A stretch of 64,000 bases of DNA from Terriglobia bacterium (GCA_965218585.1 CBDCLE010000004.1:64001-128000), one strand, 5' to 3'. Counted from the first letter of the stretch, positions 39,280 to 49,930 are shown. Numbers and translations are program-made. Notes: generated by a model from the sequence alone, not told the origin.

Positions 39280-39699
39280 TCAGCCTTCGAGAAGCGTTTC
39301 AGTGAGGCGCGACGCAAGGGCATCGATTTCGCCTTCGAGTTTCTTTCGGGCTTCTTCGGTTTCGGCTCCCAGTCGCGCCCTCGCATCCGCGATGATCTGG
39401 TCCGCTTCGCGTCGGGCCTCGCCGAGCAGTCGCGCGCGTTCCTCAAGAGCCTCCTCACGAATGGCTTCCTGGTGCTTGTACGCTTCCGCCCGAGCCTCAC
39501 GAACCGCCGACTCGTATTCGGCGGTCTTTTTCTCTACTTCTTCAATGCGACGCGCTGCTTCCTCGAGGCTGCCTTCCATTGCCTGGCGGCGTTCGGCCAG
39601 AATCCGGGTCACCGGCCCAAAAAAAAACTTGGAAAGAAACACGTATAAGATGGCGACATAGATGATCGTTACGAGGATGGAAAGGTCCAGATCAATCAT
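39280..39699 (-). CDS. ATP synthase F0 subunit b'
   Basis: TM + FFGPVTRILAERR coiled coil; first gene of the operon. Confidence 0.88.
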   Translation of the reverse strand: MIDLDLSILVTIIYVAILYVFLSKFFFGPVTRILAERRQAMEGSLEEAARRIEEVEKKTAEYESAVREARAEAYKHQEAIREEALEERARLLGEARREADQIIADARARLGAETEEARKKLEGEIDALASRLTETLLEG

Positions 39700-39758
39700 C
39701 GTTTTATACTGGAAGGAAGCGCGAAATTACCCGAGACACCATTGACAACAAACGAGTT

Positions 39759-39787
39759 AAAGTAGCACCGCCATTATGGGGTGTCAA
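39759..39787 (-). promoter_or_regulatory. Sigma-70 promoter of the atp operon
   Basis: TTGACA-17 nt-TACTTT with extended -10 TG, 60 nt upstream of the b' start. Confidence 0.65.
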
Positions 39788-39844
39788 GGCCCTCGGGAGG
39801 CAGGTAGTGCGGGATTAGCGTGTGCTGCCCCTGTGTAGTTAGGT

Positions 39845-40117
39845 TTAGGGTTGCGTGGCAGACTCAACAACGGGGCCTACGACGAACCCGTCGTGTTCAA
39901 TGGTCCAGCCAAGATTCCGAAGGACGCTAAACATCTTATTCGGCCCAATTCTTTCCGTGCTCAGAATCTTTCGTAGATGGTCAGGATTAAGCCCCGCCTC
40001 TTCAGCGAATGTGCCTTGATTTCCCCGTCCGCGTACCTCTGATTCTTCTTGCAACCGCGCAATGAAGACAGCGGTCAGAGCATCCGCCAGAGATAGGGAT
40101 GGGGCATGGCTAGACAT
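39845..40117 (-). CDS. Small XRE/Cro-like HTH protein (transposon cargo)
   Basis: QGTFAEEAGLNPDHLRKIL resembles an XRE helix-turn-helix. Confidence 0.55.
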   Translation of the reverse strand: MSSHAPSLSLADALTAVFIARLQEESEVRGRGNQGTFAEEAGLNPDHLRKILSTERIGPNKMFSVLRNLGWTIEHDGFVVGPVVESATQP

Positions 40118-40402
40118 TTGTGTAAGCTTTTACACAAACTATGAATTGGAGTGTGGGGCCTCAAATCTCCACATACCATATATTCAATAGTTATTGTGGC
40201 GACCATATAGCATTGGACCAGATATGTCTATTTGTGTATTACTATACACAGATAGAGAGCAGTGCGACTGTTACTCTCTTCTTGACGGCATGACGACCAA
40301 TGATTACAATGAGCGATTCCACCGTGCGGGGCCCCCTCTCGTCCCTGTACAATGGTTATTGGGGCAGTTTTTCCTTTCTTCTGCCTTATCTGGGGTGATT
40401 CA

Positions 40403-41173
40403 ATGGCAACAGTCGGCAATGAAGCCCGCCTGAGGCAGGCAGATCCAACTCTGCCCGCCCGCGAGCGGTTGATCGTTGCGCTCGATTTTAACAACCGCGA
40501 CGATGCGCTGGGGCTTGTTGATAAGCTTCAAGGCGAGGTGGAAACCTATAAAGTAGGCTACGAACTCTTTATCTCTGAAGGGCCGCAGATCATTGTGAGT
40601 CTCGTACAGCACCAGAAGAAAGTGTTTCTCGATCTCAAGATGGATGATATTGGTGTCACCATGTCGCGGGCTGTGACTGCAATCAAGACTCTCGGGGTTT
40701 CTTTTCTGACGCTGAAGGGTAATGGAGCGACTGCAAGAGCGGCACGTGAAGGGCGTGGGGCTGGCCCGCCACCGCTTTTCTTGCAGGTCACGTACTTGTC
40801 GAGTCAAGATGAAGCGGACCTGCACGATGAGTATGGTGCGAATATCCCGCTGCAGCAGTTCATCAGGATTCGGGCAGAAAAGATTCTTGAGGCGGGCTGC
40901 GATGGCGTAATCGCTTCAGGTGCAAGCGTTGGGGATCTTCGAGGTTATTTGGATGGCCGCGTTGCTCGGGTGAAGACGCCAACAATCGTTGTTCCTGGTA
41001 TCAGGCCGGAGTGGGCAGAGCCGGACGACCATAAGAGATTCTTGACGCCAACGGATGCCATTCATACCGGTGCCGACTACTTAGTTGTGGGACGGCCGAT
41101 CAGGCATGCATCCGATCCAGCTGATGCAGCCCATCGAATCATCGACGAAATACATAGCGCATCTAACGTATAA
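40403..41173 (+). CDS. pyrF: Orotidine-5'-phosphate decarboxylase, divergent (transposon cargo)
   Basis: LIVALD, YKVG, FLDLKMDDI (DxKxxD), PGIRP and GADYLVVGRPI; ATG 40403 follows GGGGTGA. Confidence 0.88.
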   Translation: MATVGNEARLRQADPTLPARERLIVALDFNNRDDALGLVDKLQGEVETYKVGYELFISEGPQIIVSLVQHQKKVFLDLKMDDIGVTMSRAVTAIKTLGVSFLTLKGNGATARAAREGRGAGPPPLFLQVTYLSSQDEADLHDEYGANIPLQQFIRIRAEKILEAGCDGVIASGASVGDLRGYLDGRVARVKTPTIVVPGIRPEWAEPDDHKRFLTPTDAIHTGADYLVVGRPIRHASDPADAAHRIIDEIHSASNV

Positions 41174-41177
41174 AGTT

Positions 41178-41270
41178 TGACGGAGGGGACGGGATTCGAA
41201 CCCGCGAACTGTGGTATCAGCACAGCGCCCGATCCTAAGTCGGGTCGTTTCACCTGACAACAGCCCCTCC
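41178..41270 (-). tRNA. Atypical class II tRNA, anticodon TAG (Leu), with Ser-like acceptor stem and G73
   Basis: Acceptor GGAGGGG/CCCCTCC; anticodon arm CCCGA-CTTAGGA-TCGGG; V-arm CTGTG/CACAG; T-arm GCGGG-TTCGAAT-CCCGT; 3' end G-TCA. Confidence 0.85.
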
Positions 41271-41331
41271 GTCAATTCCCCACCCTACCCACTCCGCAGT
41301 CACATCCGGTCCATAACTCTCAACTAATAAC

Positions 41332-41360
41332 TTGCATACGGGCGTATCATATGATACATT
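41332..41360 (+). promoter_or_regulatory. Sigma-70 promoter with overlapping palindromic operator
   Basis: TTGCAT-17 nt-TACATT, with ATG 6 nt downstream (leaderless). Palindromes ATACG-GG-CGTAT and GTATCATATGATAC overlap the spacer. Confidence 0.65.
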
Positions 41361-41366
41361 ACATAA

Positions 41367-41531
41367 ATGACGACAAAGACTATTAACCTTCGGGACATGC
41401 CAGAAGATCTAGTGAGGAAAGCCAAGGCACACGCGGCACTAGAGGGAATCAGCCTGAAGGCTCTCGTCATTCAGGCCCTAGACCAGGTTGTCCGAGAGGA
41501 AAAGACAGGAAAGAAGATTAAAGAGAAATAG
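41367..41531 (+). CDS. 54-aa ribbon-helix-helix (Arc/CopG-like) protein, below the ORF-track cutoff
   Basis: MTTKTINLRDMPEDLVRKAKAHAALEGISLKALVIQALDQVV...; alternating beta-strand followed by two helices. Confidence 0.8.
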   Translation: MTTKTINLRDMPEDLVRKAKAHAALEGISLKALVIQALDQVVREEKTGKKIKEK

Positions 41532-41956
41532 ATCGGCCCTGCCCGGTGCGACTAACACCAGACAGGGCCTAACTAACTCACGCGATAGAGCCGCATGAGC
41601 CAGCCATCAAACTCATTGTGAACCTGTCCGCGTGGAAAGGCAAGGTTCACAATGACCTGCATCCACTGCCAGCACGACCGAGTTAGAAAGTCCGGCACCT
41701 ACGGTAAGAAACGCATCCAGCGTTACCGTTGCACGTTCTGCGATAAGACCTTCTCAGAAGCCCAAGAAAAGCCTCTCGGAAAGCTCCGTATATCAGTCGA
41801 GAAAGCCGTCCAGATCGTCAATTGCCTCGTCGAAGGTTGCGGTATCCGTGCCACTTCGAGATTGTGTGACGTAGACGCAAAGACGGTTCTTGCCGTACTT
41901 GAGTTGGCCGGAGAACGATGCCAACGGCTCATGGACCGAAAGTTGTACGGCATCAA

Positions 41957-42995
41957 TCGCTTTGACAACGTAAAAAGAGCCCACCCCCGGGTTAATGGTT
42001 TGTAAGTAAATCCGCCGTCGGGGTTGCGGGAAGTGTGGAAGCCGAAAGCTTCCAAGCCGCGGTGGTAACGCGCCGGCTTTGCAGCGGGTTTCCACGGTGG
42101 CGACACTTTCCACAGCCGCTCGCTCGCGTGTGTTTCACGCGGAACCTTGGGCGGACCGGGGTTTCTTCTTCCGTTTGCCCGCGGCACCGAGACTCTCGGT
42201 GAAGCGGATACTTTCCCAATCGAACTGATGAATCGCACAGTGATGGGTCAATCGGTCCAGCAGGGCCGCGGTCAGGGCGGCATCGCCGAACACGCTGGTC
42301 CACTGCGCAAACGGCAGGTTCGACGTCACGATGAGGGAACCCTTTTCGTACCGGTCCGAGAAGACCTGAAACAGCAACTGGGCACCCTCGGCCGAGAACG
42401 GGATATAGCCGACCTCGTCGACGATGAGCAGCTCGAAGCGGGACAACTTCGCCAGTTGCCGCTTCAACTGTCGCTCCTCACGGGACTCGATCAGCGTATT
42501 GACCCGCCCCGCGGCCGTGGTGAACCCGACGCGGTAGCCCCTCCGGCAGGCTTCCACGCCCAGCACCGTCGCGGCGTGGGTCTTGCCGGTGCCGTGCTTG
42601 CCCAACAGCACGACGTTCTCGCACCGGGTGATGGTGTCGCACTCGGCCGGCTGCTCCCGATCGGCCCGCAGCCAGCCCTCCACGATCCCGGCCACCGGGT
42701 CCATCACCGGACAGGCCGGCTCCTTCTCCCGCCGATACTTCGGCTCCTGGCCGGCCAATACTTTCCGGACCGTCCGTCTCGTGTGCCCGGTCTCCCGGGC
42801 GATCTGTCGAATGCTTTTCTTGTAAACTCGATGTGCGGTCCTGACCATCTCGTACTGATCCATCCCTAACAACTCCTTATCCTCCCTCCGCCATGCCGGT
42901 TCATCCAGGCACTCGCCGGGGGAGGCTATCAGGGTGGGTCCTTTTTCCTCGATCAGAACCCCGTTTGGTGGGTCCTTTTTACGTTATCGAAATCA
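41957..42995 (-). mobile_element. Internally deleted IS21-family element (1039 bp)
   Basis: IRs ..AACGTAAAAAG..CCCACC at both ends with an internal repeat; 5-bp TSD ATCAA at 41952-41956 and 42996-43000. Confidence 0.9.
42135..42872 (-). CDS. In-frame IstA(HTH)::IstB(AAA+) deletion fusion
   Basis: SIRQIARETGHTRRTVRK...EQPA is joined to ECDTITRCENVVLLGKHGTGKT...LIVDEVGY...ALLDRLTHH. Confidence 0.85.
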   Translation of the reverse strand: MLGMDQYEMVRTAHRVYKKSIRQIARETGHTRRTVRKVLAGQEPKYRREKEPACPVMDPVAGIVEGWLRADREQPAECDTITRCENVVLLGKHGTGKTHAATVLGVEACRRGYRVGFTTAAGRVNTLIESREERQLKRQLAKLSRFELLIVDEVGYIPFSAEGAQLLFQVFSDRYEKGSLIVTSNLPFAQWTSVFGDAALTAALLDRLTHHCAIHQFDWESIRFTESLGAAGKRKKKPRSAQGSA

Positions 42996-43082
42996 ATCAA
43001 TGCACAGCAGATCCAGTGCGACGAAATTTGGACTTTTGTTCAGAAGAAAGAAAGGCGCATTAAACCTTGGGAGAATGGCAAT

Positions 43083-44447
43083 GAGGTCGTTCCAATCGGT
43101 GTGTAAAAAGAGAAGGCGGTGTACGCTTTCGGTGAATTCGAAACCGTAAGCAATCCCGGCAGCAATCGGGAGAAAGGTACACCACCCATGAAGAAGAAGA
43201 ACATACCGGCATCAGTGGCGTCAACGAACGCGTATGAAGGTTTGGAGGACTGGGCGCGATCCCGGGTCCAAGTCTGGCTACAGGAGCTGCTCGAGGACGA
43301 AGTCACTCAATTTCTGGGTCGGGAAAAGTCGGAGCGGAGTCCGAATCGACGAGGATACCGGAACGGTCACGGGAAACCGCGACGCTTCGCAATGATGAAC
43401 GGTACGATGGAGGTTCGACGACCTCGGGTTCGAAACACCGCCGAGCGGTTCGAGAGTCAGATCCTGCCGTATTTTCGACGGAAATCGAAACAGCTGGGCG
43501 AGCTACTTCCCGATCTCTACCTCCACGGTCTGGCCACAGGGGACTTCGAGCAGGCCATGCGCGGACTGCTTGGCGCTGGCGCTCCGTTGTCGCGAGCATC
43601 GATCCAACGACTGAAATCGACCTGGCAGTTGGAGTATGACGAGTGGGTCCAGCAGGACCTGTCCGGCCTCGAGGTCGTGTACCAGTGGGCAGACGGCTTG
43701 TACGTGAAAGCGGGGATCGCGAAAGAGCGAGCGGCATTGCTGGTGATCATCGGAGCCTTGTCAGACGGGCGCAAAGTGCTGTTGGCCTGTGAGAGCGGGC
43801 AGCGGGAAAGCAAGGAGTCCTGGAGCCGCATTCTGCGCAATCTCCAGAGACGGGGCCTGAAGCTGGGACGGCTGACTGTCGCGGACGGTCACCTGGGCAT
43901 CTGGTCCGCGCTGGCCGAGCAACAGCCCCAGGGCCAGGAACAACGCTGCTGGAACCACAAGTCGATCAACGTGGTCGATCATCTGCCGAAGACCGAGCAG
44001 CCCGCGGCCAGACAGCTGCTTCATGGGATGGCCTTCGCGAACTCCCGCGCGGCCTGCGAACGAAAGCGGGATCAGTTCGTCCGCCGATATGAGAAGAACT
44101 ATCCCAAAGCGGGTGAGACGCTGTTGCGGGACTGGGACCGGATGATTACTTTCTATGAGTTCCCGAAACAACACTGGGTGCATCTGAGAACAACCAACAT
44201 CGTCGAATCGCCCTTCGACATGGTTCGCCTCCGCACCAACGCCGCTCGCCGATTCAAGCGTGTCGAGAATGCAACGGCAATGATCTGGAAGCTACTACGT
44301 GTCGCTGAGAAGGCTTGGCGACACTTAAAAGGATCCGAACTCTTACAAGAGGTCTATGATGGTCAGCAATTCGCTGACGGCATCAGAGTCGTGATGAAAT
44401 CGAAGGCCGCCGCCTGATGACTTTTACACACCTTTTGTAATAACCTC
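43083..44447 (+). mobile_element. IS256-family element, complete second copy
   Basis: Near-identical to 15372-16736; 8-bp TSD ATGGCAAT at 43075-43082 and 44448-44455. Confidence 0.95.
43188..44417 (+). CDS. IS256-family transposase
   Basis: Protein identical to the other full copy. Confidence 0.93.
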   Translation: MKKKNIPASVASTNAYEGLEDWARSRVQVWLQELLEDEVTQFLGREKSERSPNRRGYRNGHGKPRRFAMMNGTMEVRRPRVRNTAERFESQILPYFRRKSKQLGELLPDLYLHGLATGDFEQAMRGLLGAGAPLSRASIQRLKSTWQLEYDEWVQQDLSGLEVVYQWADGLYVKAGIAKERAALLVIIGALSDGRKVLLACESGQRESKESWSRILRNLQRRGLKLGRLTVADGHLGIWSALAEQQPQGQEQRCWNHKSINVVDHLPKTEQPAARQLLHGMAFANSRAACERKRDQFVRRYEKNYPKAGETLLRDWDRMITFYEFPKQHWVHLRTTNIVESPFDMVRLRTNAARRFKRVENATAMIWKLLRVAEKAWRHLKGSELLQEVYDGQQFADGIRVVMKSKAAA

Positions 44448-44674
44448 ATGGCAATGAGATCGGAAGCCAGTACGTTTTCGTGGCGTTTGACCGTGACTCG
44501 AAACTCGCTATCAACCACACGATAGGAAAGCGTAGCCCAGCTACAACCCGTCAATTCGTGGGTGACCTGAAACGCCGTGTCAGTGGGAGGGTGCAAATCA
44601 GCACAGACGGATTTGGAGCTTATCTTGGCGCAATCGAGGATACGTTCGGGGCCAACGTCGATTACGCTCAACTA

Positions 44675-45488
44675 GAGCGTGTTAACACTAATGTAGTGCC
44701 TCGACGATGAGTGCGAAGTGAAGGAAAGCGAGGAACATGACGTCGAGTTTATCGAAACGGGAGAAGATACGCCGAAAATCCTTGAGTCGGCGGAAGAGCC
44801 TCTCGACTTCGTTCCTGCGGCGGTAGAGCACGCGGTCGTATTCCCACGGCTCCAGGCGGTTGCGCTTGGGCGGCACGACGGGAATCCACCCAAAATCCAG
44901 AGCCAATTGGCGGGTCTGGTCGTCCTGGTAGGCACGGTCCATCAGCAGCGGCAGTGGCGCGGGCAACGGCCCCAGGCCGGCGAGCAGATCGCGGCCCTGC
45001 GGGGCGTCGTGCGCTTGGCCGGGCGAGAGCGCAAACGTTATCGCCGTTCGAGCATTCGCGGCAACCAGATGAATCTTGGTGGTCCATCCACCGCGGGATT
45101 TGCCGATCGCTTGCGGACCGTTTTTTTTAACGCTCCCGTGCCGTCGGGATGCACCTTCACAATGGTCGAGTCCATCGAAACGGCTTCCACCCGGATGCGC
45201 ACCAGTTGCTCGCGCTGGAGTTTTTCGAAGACGGCGTCGAGCACCCCGTTCTTGGACCAGCGGTTCATCCGGGTGTAGATGGTGTGCCAGTTGCCAAAGC
45301 GCTTGGGCAGACCGCGCCACTTGCAGCCCTGCTCAGCCACATACAAAATGGCGTTCAAGACCGTCAGGTTCGAAAGACTGACGTTGCCCCGCCGACGCGG
45401 CAGTTCCGGCTCGATGCGACAATACTGCTCCTGTGTGATCTCCATGCCTGATTATAAAACATTCATGCTCATTAGTGTTAACACACCC
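44675..45488 (-). mobile_element. IS5-family (IS427-like) element, two ORFs (45445-45038 and through 44688) joined by a probable -1 frameshift
   Basis: IR G.G.GTGTTAACACTAAT; TA duplication in a CTAG target; A8 run at 45121-45128 (ALKK / KKNGPQAIG); GWTTKIH, MDRAY and RNEVERLF motifs. Confidence 0.92.
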
Positions 45489-45833
45489 TAGTGAAGGTCT
45501 ACCAGAATGAACCCGCAAGGCGAGGACGTTATGCCCCATCGAAGTTCGTCCGGGCGATCTCAACCACCATATCGGGCAATCCCGATCCCAAGCTCATCTG
45601 TACGTCCCACGTCGAACGATGCAATCTCACTATGCGCACCTTCATGCGGCGATTGACGCGCCTATGCCTCGGATTCTCGAAGAAGTTGGACAATCTGAAA
45701 GCCGCAGTCGCATTGCATTTCGCGTGGTACAACTTCTGCCGGGTTCACAGGAGCCTTCGGGTGACTCCTTGTATGGAGGCTGGGTTGGAGGATCATATCT
45801 GGACGATTGAGGAGCTAATCGCATGAGATACTA

Positions 45834-47072
45834 CTACTATGTTACAAACGGTCTATTTTATGTTAGCATCCGGTCATGAGCGCCAAATCGAAGGCGCCAG
45901 GCACTCAGGAAAAACGTTTTGCGGCCTATTTGGAACGCCTGGCGTCGGCCGCAGGACACGCCGATCGTCATGAACCGTTGAAGTCGTACTGCACCGGGTT
46001 GTTGCTGCCGATCAAACGTAAGAGTGTGGAGCCGATGGCTGCACGATTGGCTCCGGATAATGTACGCCGAATGCACCAGTCGCTACATCATCTGGTCGCG
46101 GATGCGCCCTGGGACGATGCGGCTCTGTTGGCAGAAGTTCGACAGTACGCGCTGGGGGCGATGGAAGCCAACGGTCCGATTGAAGCCTGGATTGTCGACG
46201 ACACCGGATTCGTGAAAAAGGGGACCCACTCGGTGGGTGTGGCCCGGCAATACTGTGGACAGGTCGGCAAACCTGAGAACTGCCGGGTGGCGGTGAGCCT
46301 GTCGGTGGCGACAGCGAAATCCAGCTTGCCGGTGGCATGGCGACTCTACCTCCCCGAGACCTGGGCGAAGGATCCGGAACGTCGAAGCAAAGCCGCTATT
46401 CCCGAAGACGTTCGATTTCAAACTAAACCTCAAATTGCTTTGGAACAAATCCGGCAGGCCGTCGATGACGGCATTGCTCCGGCACCGGTTCTGGGCGATA
46501 CGGCCTACGGCAACAACTACAAGTTCCGGCACGGCATCACCGAACTCGGACTTAGCTACGTCCTAGGGGTGCAAGGCACCACGACCGTGTGGAAACCGGG
46601 CCAGGGTCCCTTGCCGCCGAAATCCTTGACCGGCCGCGGACGGACACCGACCCGCATGCAGCGCAACAAGAAACATCAACCGGTTTCGGTCAAGCAACTG
46701 GCCCTCTCGTTGTCTCCCCAGCGTTGGAAGAACGTCTCCTGGCGCGAAGGCACCTCCGAGACCCTGCGTTCCCGTTTCGCCGCAGTTCGCATTCGTCCCG
46801 CTCATCTGGATCACGAGCGCCACTCGCCGCATCCGAAAGAGTGGTTGTTGGTCGCCGAGCGGAGCTGTTTTTCCCCCTCTGCATTTGTCGAGCATGTTGG
46901 ACTATCCGTCCCCAAACTCCCCAAACACTTCAAACCCCGCAGAACCCCGGATCCGGCCCGAACGACATAACCCCTGCTCGATTGCCACGCTTCGCATTCG
47001 CATCGCCCGCTTCCTGATTCAGCAGCTTCCTCATTGTCCGTTCTGTGGACCGCTTCGTTTATAACACAGTAG
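45834..47072 (+). mobile_element. IS701-family element
   Basis: IRs CTACTATGTTACAAACG / CGTTTATAACACAGTAG; TSD TACTA at 45829-45833 and 47073-47077. Confidence 0.9.
45876..46970 (+). pseudogene. IS701-family transposase with probable in-frame internal deletion
   Basis: IVDDTGFVKKG, QYCG and GDTAYG are present. EWLL runs straight into VAER, so the usual RWxIE catalytic segment is missing. Confidence 0.75.
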
Positions 47073-47173
47073 TACTACAAGGGCTACAGGAAAAAAATAT
47101 CAGAACAAAAGCACACGCTGATATGGATTGACCCTGTCAAGCTTCCGTTACGTTTCTCGAATGCGCCTCCTTC

Positions 47174-47375
47174 AATGTGCTGGATTCAGGGCGCGGCCGG
47201 CATGATTCGCGACGGTGGATCACTCTGATATTCGTGGGTTGGCTACCACCTGACATCACTTCGTCGCGGAGCTGCCTCGGTCTAAGGACGTGGGTCGGTC
47301 TGGCTGAGCCAAGCCTCTCATAGCGTGCACGAGGATTCTCCTCACCGGCCTGCCACGCCCTGAATCCAACACATT
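47174..47375 (-). ncRNA. Putative bridge/seekRNA
   Basis: A 24-bp closing stem (47174-47197 with 47352-47375) encloses segments matching the target and the donor junction. Confidence 0.7.
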
Positions 47376-47527
47376 ACGTTTTTTGGGTCCAGCCTTGCTC
47401 CGGAAGCGCATGATGGCATTGCGCCCGGGGAGGCGTCGGAGGAGTTTTCCACACCTTGTCCATGGCACCGCGTGCTTCGAATACACGGCGGAGCAGTGGC
47501 AAGGTGTGGAGAACTCCGGCCCATCTC

Positions 47528-48658
47528 TCAGCTCCGCGCCCGCGTTGCATGGGCTCGGCCCATCACCTCGCAAGCAATCGCCCAGATGAACCCCACCAGC
47601 TCGCGGGCCACCGCGGTGGTGACCACGCACTTCGCCTTGCCCGCGCTATACAGATGCCGGTACCGCGCACACAGCCGCTTCTGGGCTGCCCAGGCGATGG
47701 CCTGCACTGCTGGCGGCGCCGCACTCGCCTTGCATCTCAAGTGCCTGGTTTTGCGCGCAGGGAACCGGTAGCTCCAGGCCGATTCAACCAGCACGCGGCG
47801 CACGTGTCCATTGCCTGTTTTCGTGATGGCTCCTTGGCGCCGCCGCGGCCCCGAGGAGTGCTCGCTCGGCACCAGCCCCAGAAAGCTCATCAGCTCGCGC
47901 GGCGAATCAAAACGCGTCAGGTCCCCGAGTTCGGCCAGCACCGTCATGGCCGTGACCACATCCACCCCGCGCAACGCGATCAGCGCCTCGACCATCGGAC
48001 GCAGCGACCACCGCTCCAACACCTCGCGCATCTGCCCTTCCAGGCCCGCCACGCGGCGGCGCGCCTCCATCACCGTATCGACGTATTCCTGAAACACCAC
48101 CTGCTGTACCGGATGCTCGAACCGCTGCTCCTCCAGCCACCGAAAGTGCCGTTGCGTCCACCGGCTCTTGCCTTCCCGATACACTCGATCATGACGCAGC
48201 AGAAACACCCCCAGTCGCTGCCGAGCCTTGGCCTCGATCGCCTTCATGTCCTCGCGCGCCCGCGTCAGGTCGCGCATCGCCTCCTGCTCCTCGTCGGGCA
48301 CCCACACCGCCGTCAGCTCCCCCGACCGATGCAGCCGCGCCAGCTTCACCGCGTCGCGCCGATCCGTCTTCACTCGCTCCCCCGCGCGCCGCGGGATCAG
48401 GCTCGGCGCGACCACCTCGCAATAGTGGCCGGTGTCGATGATCTCTCGATACACCCCATACCCGCACGGTCCCGCCTCGTAGCAGAAGCTCAACACCTCT
48501 GCGTGCGGACTCAGGCTGCGAATGAGTCGCAGCAGCGATTTGCGTTGATTCTTGATCTCGCCCCGGTACACCGGCGCCTCACGTCCGGGCAGCGCTACCG
48601 CCACCGCGATCGTGTCCTTGTGAACGTCCAGTCCAACGTATGCACTACACTTGTTCAT
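47528..48658 (-). CDS. IS110-family recombinase
   Basis: YVGLDVHK, YEAGPCG, KTDRRDA, GLVPSEHSSG and ITKTGN motifs; ATG at 48658. Confidence 0.95.
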   Translation of the reverse strand: MNKCSAYVGLDVHKDTIAVAVALPGREAPVYRGEIKNQRKSLLRLIRSLSPHAEVLSFCYEAGPCGYGVYREIIDTGHYCEVVAPSLIPRRAGERVKTDRRDAVKLARLHRSGELTAVWVPDEEQEAMRDLTRAREDMKAIEAKARQRLGVFLLRHDRVYREGKSRWTQRHFRWLEEQRFEHPVQQVVFQEYVDTVMEARRRVAGLEGQMREVLERWSLRPMVEALIALRGVDVVTAMTVLAELGDLTRFDSPRELMSFLGLVPSEHSSGPRRRQGAITKTGNGHVRRVLVESAWSYRFPARKTRHLRCKASAAPPAVQAIAWAAQKRLCARYRHLYSAGKAKCVVTTAVARELVGFIWAIACEVMGRAHATRARS

Positions 48659-48901
48659 GACCTGCCCTCCTCGTTGTGGCTCTGTGTCGAAGGTTCCTCG
48701 CCCCGCAACATAACCCACGCGTACGAGGCCAGGGCAGGTCAATCCATGGTGTCTAATCCCGCACTACCGGGAGGCAAGAGTTGGCCGTCTTTCGGGGCCT
48801 CTCCGCGCATTTTCCTGGTAGGCGGTGCTGGCACGCCCGGCACCGTTCTTATGAAAGGACTTTCGTCGTTTGGTGGGACCCCTTATCTCCGCAGAAAGGA
48901 G

Positions 48902-49930
48902 TCACACAACGTGGATGCAGGCTTCGCTGTGCGGAAGAGCGCGGCCGATTTCAGCGACATCGATGCCCTCCCCAACAAGTGCATCGATCAGGCTGGAAGA
49001 ATCTGCTTCGTTTATGAAAATAAGCAAGCCACCGGAGGTCTGGGGATCGAATAGAACGCTCTGGTGGTCTTCCGGTATCTGGGGACTCCAGGTGACGTGG
49101 GGAGAAAAGAATTCGCGATTGCTGTTCAATCCGCCAGCGCGGTGCCCCTTGGCGCTGTAATCGAGAGCACCATCAAAGATCGGCAGGCGGGTGTGGTCGA
49201 CTTCGATGGTCAGATTGCTGGCGCGCGCCACTTCAACGGCATGGCCTGTCAAACCAAAACCACTGATATCGGTCATCGTGCGGACGTCGAACTGAGACAC
49301 GATTTCGGCTGCCCTCTTATTGGTTTCAATCATCGAACGGAGCGCGGCATCAACATGCGCTGCCTCCGCCTCTTCTCTCTTCGAGGCTGTCGCGATGAGT
49401 CCCGTCCCCAGGCGTTTGGTCAGCAACACGCTGTCGCCGGCGAGCGCTCCACTGTTATCTCGAATCCGTGTGGGATCCACAGTCCCCGTCACTGCATAGC
49501 CAAACTTTATCTCTTCGTCCTTAACCGAATGCCCTCCCAGCAGCGCCACACCGCACTCGTTGAGCTTGTCCAAACCCCCGTCAATGATGTCCCTCAGCAG
49601 GCTGGGATCCGCCTTGCCTTCCGGAAAACCTACGACCGAAAGCGCCGTCAGGGGCGTAGCGCCCATCGCGTATATGTCGCTCAACGCGTTTGCTGCGGCG
49701 ATCTGCCCGAAGGAGAAAGCGTCATCAACGATGGGTGCAAAGAAATCGACGGTTTGGACCAGGGCGATATCGTCGGTGAGGCGATACACTCCGGCGTCAT
49801 CGGCATGATCGAAGCCGACGAGGATTTCAGGAATTTGCTGGGCCTTGAGGCCTTTGAGCGCGCGGTCCAAGTCCCTTGGACTTAACTTACCTGCTCAGCC
49901 GGCACATTTCGCAAAACTAGTTAGCTTCAT
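48902..49930 (-). CDS. selD: Selenide, water dikinase, selenocysteine-containing
   Basis: MKLTSFAKCAG(TGA 49897-49895)AGKLSP; DDAGVY, QTVDFF, ANALSDIYAMG and DPQTSGGLL motifs. Confidence 0.95.
49865..49881 (-). promoter_or_regulatory. SECIS hairpin of selD
   Basis: Perfect GTCCAAG-GGA-CTTGGAC stem-loop beginning 14 nt after the TGA. Confidence 0.75.

Follow-up and report, generated by a model that had tools for sequence, protein, structure and literature searches.

Members of the IS1 family of insertion sequences (IS) have terminal repeats of about 20–25 bp beginning with GGT and generate target duplications of 8–9 bp. Classical IS1 has two open reading frames (ORFs), InsA and InsB', which are fused by a programmed −1 frameshift; single-ORF members of the family are also known, and ISfinder reportedly lists an IS1 subgroup 'ISMhu11' of 900–4,600 bp. 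IS that carry passenger genes (transporter IS, tIS) represent an accepted class (PMC9330008), which the TnCentral preprint restricts to IS1595 and IS66. The present analysis concerns an 8,966-bp locus (positions 39803–48768) in a 64,000-nucleotide stretch of a Terriglobia bacterium (the window, i.e. positions 64001–128000 of contig C4 of genome G000, which comprises 4.55 Mb), located between atpF' (39280–39699, minus strand) and selD (48902–49870, minus strand). It very probably represents one insertion of a 2,854-bp IS1-like tIS, with an apparent preference for targets close to promoters, that was later inactivated by five other IS.

Like a tIS, the element combines a single transposase of IS type with terminal repeats, a target duplication and, inside the repeats, passenger genes (for a helix-turn-helix (HTH) protein, pyrF and a tRNA); it differs in belonging to an IS1-like clade and in a cargo that is apparently obligatory, being found in all 27 validated relatives. 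With the single-ORF members of the IS1 family it shares an N-terminal zinc finger and HTH, a DDE-type core, GGT repeats of about 24 bp and the 8-bp duplication, whereas a score below the curated cut-off, the one ORF and 1–4 kb of passenger DNA set it apart from that family. The toxin-antitoxin (TA) pairs of Tn3-family transposons (10.1101/848275) have their counterpart in TA-like pairs of the relatives (HicAB, DUF433/PIN, Panacea, HigB); the transposase here is, however, of another family, no resolvase is present, and in place of a full TA pair the window copy has an orphan ribbon-helix-helix (RHH) gene together with a metabolic gene. Finally, odd tRNAs of Acidobacteria adjoin a transposon-related ORF and TA genes (Mukai et al. 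2017, PMC5389517), a pseudogene of an allo-tRNA overlaps a transposon-related ORF, and allo-tRNAs lie near TA genes (PMC5389517; 2020 review PMC7609411). The initial annotation did not recognise the module as described, which holds only in part, given that tIS are an established class and that odd tRNAs near a transposon ORF have been reported (PMC5389517).

Ends and reconstruction of the element

The initial annotation had proposed a perfect pair of 24-bp inverted repeats and an 8-bp duplication around the 8,966 bp, and a unit of 2,854 bp with a transposase of 313 amino acids (aa) after removal of five IS. The core was rebuilt with a script by joining positions 39803–41956, 43001–43082, 44456–44675, 45492–45834, 47079–47119 and 48755–48768, and the result agrees with the proposal in every number: the rebuilt core is 2,854 bp long, its end bases are complementary at 24/24 positions, its ends begin with GGTAGTG, GGGAGGCA is present on both sides, and the frame of the 313-aa transposase, starting at 41652, reopens (Table 1). 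The gene order HTH (−), pyrF (+), tRNA (−), RHH (+) and transposase gene (tnp, +) was likewise borne out by the ORF and tRNA calls.

The spacer between atpF' and selD is uninterrupted, with a length of 85–277 bp, in four of five related genomes (G002, G003 and G004 from the same genus and G013 from the same family), and neither pyrF nor the tRNA is found at this site in any of the four. In G003 a single AGGAACTA is aligned in the column of the window duplication. The vacant selD-atpF' site that the initial annotation expected in relatives is thus present in four of them, and the arrangement that would contradict it, pyrF and tRNA at this place without the repeats, was seen in none of these.

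Two copies of one IS around the cargo, by which a composite transposon is defined, were not found: there is a single IS1-like transposase gene, and the other five IS represent five families and interrupt the element rather than bounding it. A recurrent GGTAGTGCGGGCAT (7 copies) was considered as an element end and rejected, since it is internal to a different repeat.

What weighs against this reading of the locus is that no second or intact copy of the element was found. In a BLAST search of 39600–49000 against the whole genome, the core stretches between the intruding IS match nowhere else in G000; the 24-mer repeat, allowing up to 6 mismatches, is found elsewhere in G000 at no IS1-like gene, two loose matches with 6 mismatches being located in other places; and the exact 24-mer has no match in metagenome contigs. 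The uninterrupted copies for which the initial annotation suggested a search did not turn up, the closest relatives in genomes and metagenomes (protein-guided scans) being at most 50–52% identical, and a single duplication is therefore the basis for supposing that this cargo moved between these ends.

The transposase and its family

In the reconstruction as well as in intact relatives the transposase is encoded by a single ORF of 313–316 aa, with no InsA/InsB' pair, which excludes the classical IS1 subgroup only. Motifs CxxC...CxxC occupy residues 3–6 and 27–30 and are followed by an HTH, and the conserved blocks IQCDEIW, STDG and HVERxNLTxR would hold the catalytic residues D, D and E. The top match is NF033558 (NCBIfam IS1), with 90.7 bits for the fragment from G001, 87.6 bits for the copy on contig C7 of G000 and 89.2 bits for locus L020 (E-values of 1e-24 to 1e-25); the alignment spans positions 1–170 of the 199 of the model, and the next families after IS1 (IS1595, ISL3 and IS6) reach at most 35 bits. 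All of these IS1 scores are, on the other hand, below the curated cut-off of 100, and Pfam PF03400 yields 19.9 and 19.1 bits for the pieces and 24.7 bits for the copy on contig C2 at a cut-off of 24.1; both facts argue against a firm family assignment. The Zn domain of IS1/IS1595 (NF050000) gives 24.9–26.1 bits, just below its cut-off of 28. The assignment to the IS1 family made in the initial annotation thus remains the best available label in view of the top NCBIfam match, the GGT repeats and the 8-bp duplication, but falls short of the curated NCBIfam threshold, and 'IS1-like', as judged from the protein sequence, is the honest label for the transposase.

tRNA-like genes beside the transposase gene

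A scan of one genome per species for related transposases yielded 212 relatives, of which the best 80 loci were retained. Ends were taken as proven where GGTAGTG-type repeats on both sides of tnp were accompanied by an 8-bp duplication with at most one mismatch, and 27 of the 80 loci have such ends (26 of GGTAGTG type and L042 with GGCACTG ends). The remaining 53, having no end pair or too short a contig, had been dropped before target sites and cargo sizes were counted, which weighs against the main reading.

A tRNA call (ARAGORN) on the strand of tnp and not more than 400 bp upstream of its start was obtained in 12 of the 80 loci, compared with 0.2 expected from the background density (15 further calls over both strands of 1.24 Mb), and six of these 12 tRNA-like genes are inside elements with proven ends. 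Twelve tRNA-like genes (upstream of tnp or, in the G001 element L011, within the element) in 12 of 13 scanned loci pass the Rfam gathering score for tRNA, with 36–71 bits. Their anticodons are diverse (GGC, GUA, ACU, UGC, GCU, UUG, CGU, GUU and UUA), and several of them possess tRNA-Ser-like bodies with G73. The metagenome set revealed the same placement in 5 of 68 loci (3 distinct) and no other tRNA call in 494 kb. The tRNA-like gene beside tnp is a real feature of a minority of relatives; its generality is limited by its detection in only 17 of 148 relatives with this detector, and its significance by the fact that the 400-bp interval was defined after the same data had been seen.

Five loci of the C7 type (L005, L006, L019, L018 and L023; 330 bp upstream of tnp) have transposases that are 87–96% identical and tRNA-like genes with anticodon UUA, GGC or UGC, a remnant (L023) or none. 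The next approximately 190 bp are conserved in these loci and contain TTGACA-17-TTTAAT, a hairpin followed by ATTTT, and a hairpin at the start codon. Pairing of UUA suppressor tRNAs with in-frame stop codons in tnp was considered and rejected, as the aligned parts of L005 and L043 contain no stops.

In the ARAGORN fold, the tRNA of the window element has 8 bp in its acceptor stem, 5 bp in its T stem and 6 bp in its variable stem; counted from G1, the geometry becomes 7/5. Its acceptor stem GGAGGGG/CCCCTCC is followed by discriminator G73, and its best Rfam family is tRNA-Sec with 43.9 bits, below the gathering score of 47, in an alignment with a 6-bp D stem containing one bulge and with a 4-nt loop. 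It resembles the tRNA-Ser genes of the host (GGAGAGG...G73) and not the tRNA-Leu genes (GCC...A73), and a normal 83-nt tRNA-Leu(TAG) is encoded on contig C22. The tRNA(UAG) of the element in G001 has the exact tRNA-Ser acceptor stem GGAGAGG/CCTCTCC with G73, so that the acceptor stems of the two element tRNAs are distinguished solely by a compensated pair. Because recognition by SerRS depends on the long arm and G73/U73 and not on the anticodon (PMC5389517), serine is to be expected if the window tRNA is charged at all. From its acceptor stem, G73 and long variable arm it is predicted to be charged by SerRS while reading the Leu codons CUN; any activity it may have would be that of a mistranslating or regulatory tRNA resembling the allo-tRNAs.

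Allo-tRNAs are similar in their Sec-like D arm, long variable arm, G73/U73 and non-serine anticodon as well as in their occurrence in the same phylum, and their (9/3) type includes readers of CUA/CUG (PMC5389517). Their defining 8/4 or 9/3 structure (12-bp acceptor branch) is, in contrast, not matched by the window tRNA with its 8/5 or 7/5 structure, a 9/3 reading of which requires a C:U mismatch. A further difference is that the carrier can be named in the present case, being an IS1-like transposon whose ends are proven. Among papers using the term 'allo-tRNA', none was apparent from its title or abstract as defining the carrier, although the figures and supplements of PMC5389517 may already show transposase neighbours.

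The strongest alternative, only slightly less probable than its opposite, is that the tRNA is no serine-inserting decoder. It would then be either a relic in decay or a tRNA-like structure acting in cis, such as a signal for processing by RNase P/Z or an insulating signal at the boundary between cargo and tnp. Its aberrant D arm and the Rfam score below the gathering threshold point in this direction. In addition, elements of the C7 type with transposases 87–95% identical have different anticodons (UUA, GGC, UGC) or no tRNA-like gene, the tRNA-like gene abuts the tnp promoter region in relatives, and many allo-tRNA(UAU) are inactive in E. coli (PMC5389517). On the other hand, no damage is seen in the acceptor stem, G73, T arm or anticodon loop, the acceptor stems of G000 and G001 show covariation, the tRNA-like genes of twelve relatives pass the Rfam threshold, and insertion of Ser in E. 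coli is known for some allo-tRNAs that have Leu anticodons (PMC7609411). The position of the window tRNA on the strand opposite to tnp weighs against the main reading, as does a BLAST search against 400 genomes of the class (including seven unpublished ones, G327, G090, G118, G349, G253, G389 and G293, on which nothing else here depends), which found no full-length relative, only matches of 22–40 nt in the T arm.

Target sites

The element of the window lies beside a promoter-like site of the host atp operon, the −35 hexamer of which begins 7 bp outside the duplication. A simple promoter scan did not flag this site, which counts against the main reading, because its −10 hexamer matches at only 3/6 positions. 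TTGACA-17-TAACCT is found at the same place in G001, and the GGGGTGTCAAGG block is conserved in all five relatives aligned. Among 31 proven target sites, i.e. those of the 27 loci together with the sites in the window, in G001, in G003 and on contig C2 of G000, TTG is located at offset 7 or 8 outside the duplication in 21, compared with a background of 6.6% at random sites of the same sequences (binomial probability 4e-18). The TTG lies on the side of the right inverted repeat (IRR) in 14 cases and on that of the left inverted repeat (IRL) in 7, all remaining offsets between 0 and 39 having 0–2 counts, and in 11 of the 21 sites it is followed, after a spacer of 16–18 bp, by TAnnnT (background 1.4%). 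In either orientation, the elements thus seem to be placed immediately upstream of the −35 hexamer of sigma-70-type promoters.

Such homing might rest on recognition of the hexamer itself or on contact with RNA polymerase already bound at the promoter, and would represent a bacterial counterpart of the promoter targeting of yeast Ty3, which inserts at Pol III start sites. Insertion at a constant distance from a functional site in the DNA is also known from the IS1202 group at dif/pdif sites (PMC10132070) and from IS110 relatives at REP sequences (PMC12288879), from which the present elements differ by a landmark that looks like a sigma-70-type −35 hexamer and by their two orientations. In a literature search limited to titles and abstracts, no paper describing IS targeting just upstream of −35 hexamers was found.

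A rather unlikely explanation of the excess at 7–8 bp is that it reflects survival of harmless intergenic insertions, or sampling bias, and not target selection. It draws on the circumstances that the TTG rule was noticed first and tested afterwards on the same single data set, which is dominated by related alphaproteobacterial elements; that 10 of the 31 sites are without the TTG; and that one further validated site, with 877 bp of cargo, from the metagenome set (provable ends in 2 of 80 loci, 1 distinct) has no TTG at 7–8 bp. Survival alone should nevertheless not yield a peak that is sharp to 2 bp (14 and 7 at offsets 7–8 compared with 0–2 elsewhere). The duplications and flanks, moreover, differ at all 31 sites, which therefore represent separate insertion events, and the same atp promoter was struck by two independent insertions. 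A preference of the clade for landing 7–8 bp upstream of the −35 hexamer would account for both G000 and G001 having been struck there, in opposite orientations.

Passenger genes

In all 27 relatives with proven ends, IRL is located 1,095–3,770 bp upstream of the transposase start and the total length is 2,058–4,790 bp, none being compact. Pfam families identified among 81 cargo ORFs are HTH_3 (5), SDH_protease (4), Peptidase_M78 (3), N6_N4_Mtase, a DNA methylase (2), P63C (2), HNH (2) and HigB (1); many cargo ORFs belong to no family, and some are probably antisense artefacts of GC-rich DNA. The element on contig C2 of G000 (2,536 bp, with an 8-bp duplication) carries a DUF433 and PIN_10 pair, that of G003 (3,670 bp) an RHH gene and a Panacea antitoxin pair, and that of G001 the tRNA(UAG), a nested IS256-like element and a HicB-like/HicA pair. 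Carriage of cargo between related ends elsewhere, as anticipated in the initial annotation, is thus a consistent observation.

The variable cargo would lie between a short conserved IRL segment and the module of tnp with RHH or a tRNA-like gene, and is probably exchanged by recombination in the shared flanks; as the cargo is always found between these two conserved parts, recombination between related elements is the simplest route. A vestigial inner repeat between cargo and RHH was searched for and not found, so that nothing points to capture of the cargo by skipping of an end. It is improbable that a compact RHH-tnp element landed first and that the block of HTH, pyrF and tRNA entered later and never transposed with these ends. 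The element is single-copy, no other element has this cargo, and the cargo is wholly different among G000, G001 and G003, as such late entry would allow; against it, all 27 relatives and the three further ones with proven ends hold 0.9–3.8 kb at the same internal position, none is compact, and the inner repeat is missing.

The HTH protein encoded next to IRL has no match in Pfam or NCBIfam; its neighbours in a protein language model are repressors of the XRE/CI type at 0.94, which is to be taken as a lead only. DxKxxD is the active-site motif of orotidine-5'-monophosphate (OMP) decarboxylases, and it can be read in the pyrF product as LDLKMDDIG. With 149.8 bits for Pfam OMPdecase and 202.5 bits for NCBIfam NF001273 (cut-off 193), the protein is, to judge by its sequence, apparently a functional OMP decarboxylase. 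The gene is the second pyrF of G000, its product being 40% identical to that of the chromosomal copy on contig C2 and at most 46% identical to the pyrF products of 40 relatives; two pyrF matches were obtained in G000 and in no other of the 41 genomes searched. In a search of 5.8 billion proteins the best matches are 67, 64, 59, 57 and 56% identical, all of them unnamed metagenome proteins, followed by a plateau at about 50–53%, the few named members of which are not from Acidobacteria. From its low identity to relatives and the distance of its best database matches, the cargo pyrF is concluded to be foreign; the cargo as a whole, with its XRE-like HTH gene and Sec-like tRNA, is likewise of foreign origin. 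A contig of 216 nt from an RNA library (run X8) matches pyrF positions 40833–41048 with 0 differences and, as carry-over of DNA is possible, gives a weak hint of transcription. PADLOC yielded no match for the HTH, pyrF and RHH products.

A small basic protein of about 74–120 aa (...GGKARA...RRxEIAKKAAxARW) is encoded adjacent to IRL in many relatives (L049, L054, L070, L071 and L079; in G000 at C2 73090–73350 and on C26), and copies of the C7/C22 type have a zinc-ribbon variant; the window element is without it. This protein, which matches none of the Pfam families, may serve the clade as a conserved accessory factor.

Insertion history of the atpF'-selD spacer

In G001, which belongs to the same genus, a related element (L011, 2507–6801) is inserted at the homologous 8 bp in the opposite orientation. 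Its duplication TAGTTCCC is perfect on both sides and corresponds to GGGAACTA in window orientation. The two elements share only about 50 bp at IRL, the RHH-tnp module and IRR; the DNA of the module is 80–94% identical and the transposases agree in 180/213 and 73/95 residues, whereas the flanking selD and atp genes are 72–76% identical at the DNA level. As the terminal repeats in G001 agree at 16/24 positions and its transposase gene contains 31 extra bases (L011, 6417–6447) that shift the frame, the G001 copy is, on sequence grounds, older or more decayed than that of the window.

It is very improbable that both genomes inherited one ancestral insertion, which was later inverted in one lineage and had its cargo swapped. 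Such an origin would be in line with the position of the two elements, which occupy homologous 8-bp sites in one and the same spacer, and with the relatedness of their RHH-tnp modules. The duplications GGGAGGCA and GGGAACTA, however, differ at 3/8 positions, so that the same three changes would be needed in both copies; the site is empty in the congeners G002, G003 and G004; the element DNA is more alike than the flanking genes; and the target preference close to promoters offers a simpler reason for the recurrence. Since the duplications are identical within each genome and differ between the genomes, and since three congeners are empty, two separate insertions are far likelier than one inherited insertion. 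A resident chromosomal origin of pyrF, the tRNA and the small genes, which would then lie between two unrelated IS ends in a composite or accidental arrangement, has a negligible probability even in a genome full of IS, where chance juxtaposition of IS ends is common, given ends complementary at 24/24 positions with identical flanking 8-mers, the uninterrupted spacer without pyrF or tRNA in four of five relatives (by which empty sites this explanation is counted as refuted), the second pyrF and the normal tRNA-Leu(TAG) elsewhere in G000, the low identity of the cargo pyrF to those of the 40 relatives, and the presence, between the ends, of a single transposase gene of this kind.

Immediately beyond the right duplication of the G003 element, a further end GGTAGTGGGGTATTG... 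is seen (L132, 10331–10360), which is either that of an abutting second IS1-like element or a solo repeat.

Intruding insertion sequences

The element is now dead, three IS being inserted in tnp, one downstream of tnp and one splitting IRR. All five intruders, assigned to families by Pfam, are multi-copy in G000 according to BLAST, and four of the five are flanked by a direct repeat of their own. The deletion in the IS21-family copy, as compared with full copies on contigs C24, C2 and C19, fuses the start of IstA to IstB in one ORF of 245 aa. Five different IS are thus present within one element of 2.9 kb, all in a stretch of 7 kb, and G000 contains very many near-identical copies of the IS256, IS701 and IS5-like types; this IS load suggests a recent burst of transposition.

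The edges ACGCT...CTAA are common to all five full IS110 copies and to four partial ones (in the window at 47114–47124 and 48750–48760; in G000 on C16, C10, C4 and C19), beyond which the flanks diverge, and leave the exact limits of the IS110 uncertain by a few bases. They were read as a target preference of the IS110, because exactly those bases complete the right repeat; if the seven edge bases were part of the IS110 and not of the repeat, they would complete the 24 perfectly matching bp by chance, at about 4^-7. This suggests that the preferred target is ACG-CT-AA with a CT core and, as this sequence occurs in both terminal repeats of the IS1-like element, an IS110 of this type may be prone to striking such ends.

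Sequencing runs were checked by means of contigs, none of which crosses the whole stretch, so that uncovered stretches prove nothing. One metagenome contig of run X1 joins 45828 to 47073 and omits 1,244 bp, equal to the IS701 together with one copy of its duplication; with a shorter side of 30 letters, it weakly hints at an allele free of the IS701 in the population. In contigs of run X2, from another study, the atpF'/IRL junction and the IS junctions of the window recur with 0 differences; the structure is thus the same, and these contigs are not independent support.

The RHH gene and possible control of transposition

An RHH gene adjoining tnp is also kept in G001 and G003, and in this lineage (G000, G001 and G003) it fills the slot about 120–150 nt upstream of tnp that is elsewhere the place of the tRNA-like gene. 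A palindrome stretch near-identical to that upstream of the RHH gene of the window is implied in G001 by the ORF translation. The hairpin between RHH and tnp has an equivalent, GGCCCCA...TGGGGCC, in relatives of the C7 type, and the hairpin at the start codon has equivalents in five relatives; both recur in relatives of the C7 type with compensating changes.

The single-ORF transposase, with its zinc finger, HTH and DDE-type core, would bind the 24-bp repeats and cut the target with a stagger of 8 bp. RHH and tnp would form one unit in which tnp is expressed from the RHH promoter, the RHH protein would repress its own promoter through the 14-bp palindrome as a predicted operator, and the hairpin over the start codon would dampen translation of the transposase. 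Palindrome and hairpins suggest this combination of autorepression and translational damping; the RHH promoter was not flagged by a simple promoter scan, which speaks against it.

Table 1. Features of the IS1-like element and its surroundings (window coordinates).
Feature	Position	Strand	Remarks
Promoter-like site of the host atp operon	39759–39787	−	TTGACA (39787->39782), 17-bp spacer, TACTTT (39764->39759); reads towards atpF'
Target duplication, left copy	39795–39802		GGGAGGCA, 8 bp
IRL, left terminal inverted repeat	39803–39826	+	GGTAGTGCGGGATTAGCGTGTGCT, 24 bp; read from sequence
XRE/CI-like HTH protein, 90 aa	39845–40117	−	Divergent from pyrF; ORF call
Promoter-like site upstream of pyrF	40282–40310	+	TTGACG-17-TACAAT; 10/12, consensus match only
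pyrF, orotidine-5'-phosphate decarboxylase	40352–41173	+	Likely true start 40403
Non-canonical class-II tRNA, anticodon UAG, 93 nt	41179–41271	−	ARAGORN, called tRNA-Leu(UAG)
Perfect 14-bp palindrome, candidate RHH operator	41344–41357		GTATCATATGATAC; 10 bp upstream of RHH start codon
RHH protein, 54 aa	41367–41531	+	FitA-like RHH 23.7 bits, below cut-off of 27
Hairpin between RHH and tnp	41535–41569	+	GGCCCTG...CAGGGCC; conserved
Hairpin at tnp start	41616–41652	+	TTGTGAACC ... GGTTCACAA; 3' arm ends in A of tnp start codon
Transposase piece 1	41652–41956	+	Zinc finger CxxC...CxxC and HTH
Intruder 1, IS21-family	41957–42995	−	1,580-bp internal deletion; duplication ATCAA, second copy 42996–43000
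Transposase piece 2	43001–43082	+	IQCDEIW, region of putative first catalytic Asp
Intruder 2, IS256-family	43083–44447	+	Duplication ATGGCAAT, second copy 44448–44455
Transposase piece 3	44456–44675	+	
Intruder 3, IS5-like	44676–45487	−	Flanked by CTAG, second copy 45488–45491
Transposase piece 4	45492–45826	+	HVERCNLTMR region; ends with stop codon
Intruder 4, IS701-family	45835–47072	+	Flanked by TACTAC; limits uncertain by about 3–6 bp
IRR, inner 10 bp	47110–47119	−	Separated from outer part by IS110
Intruder 5, IS110-family, inside IRR	47120–48754	−	Without duplication; limits good to about 2–5 bp
IRR, outer 14 bp	48755–48768	−	Complement of IRL
Target duplication, right copy	48769–48776		GGGAGGCA, 8 bp

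Biological meaning

Two regularities across the clade, tRNA-like genes beside tnp and landing 7–8 bp upstream of the −35 hexamer, raise the interest of this element above that of an ordinary IS. Taken together they lead to a tentative and, as a whole, somewhat unlikely proposal: a widespread IS1-like clade may home to positions 7–8 bp upstream of the −35 hexamer of sigma-70 promoters and also spread tRNAs of serine identity with non-serine anticodons (UAG, turning Leu CUN into Ser) along with TA and other cargo. The landing rule, if real, would be a new kind of bacterial target selection, useful for the mapping of promoters and for tools of safe-site insertion.

The tIS are extended by the present element to an IS1-like clade, found in Acidobacteriota, Rhodobacterales and other phyla, in which cargo is seemingly the rule. 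In comparison with the TA-type and regulator-type cargo of its relatives, pyrF, a metabolic enzyme of the housekeeping type, is an unusual passenger. For the association of allo- or irregular tRNAs with neighbouring transposon and TA genes, previously noted in passing, transposon boundaries are now proven, and the horizontal spread of mistranslating tRNAs on transposons becomes testable. If the proposal is true, the genetic-code-bending tRNAs of Acidobacteria would be mobile passengers of a promoter-seeking transposon.

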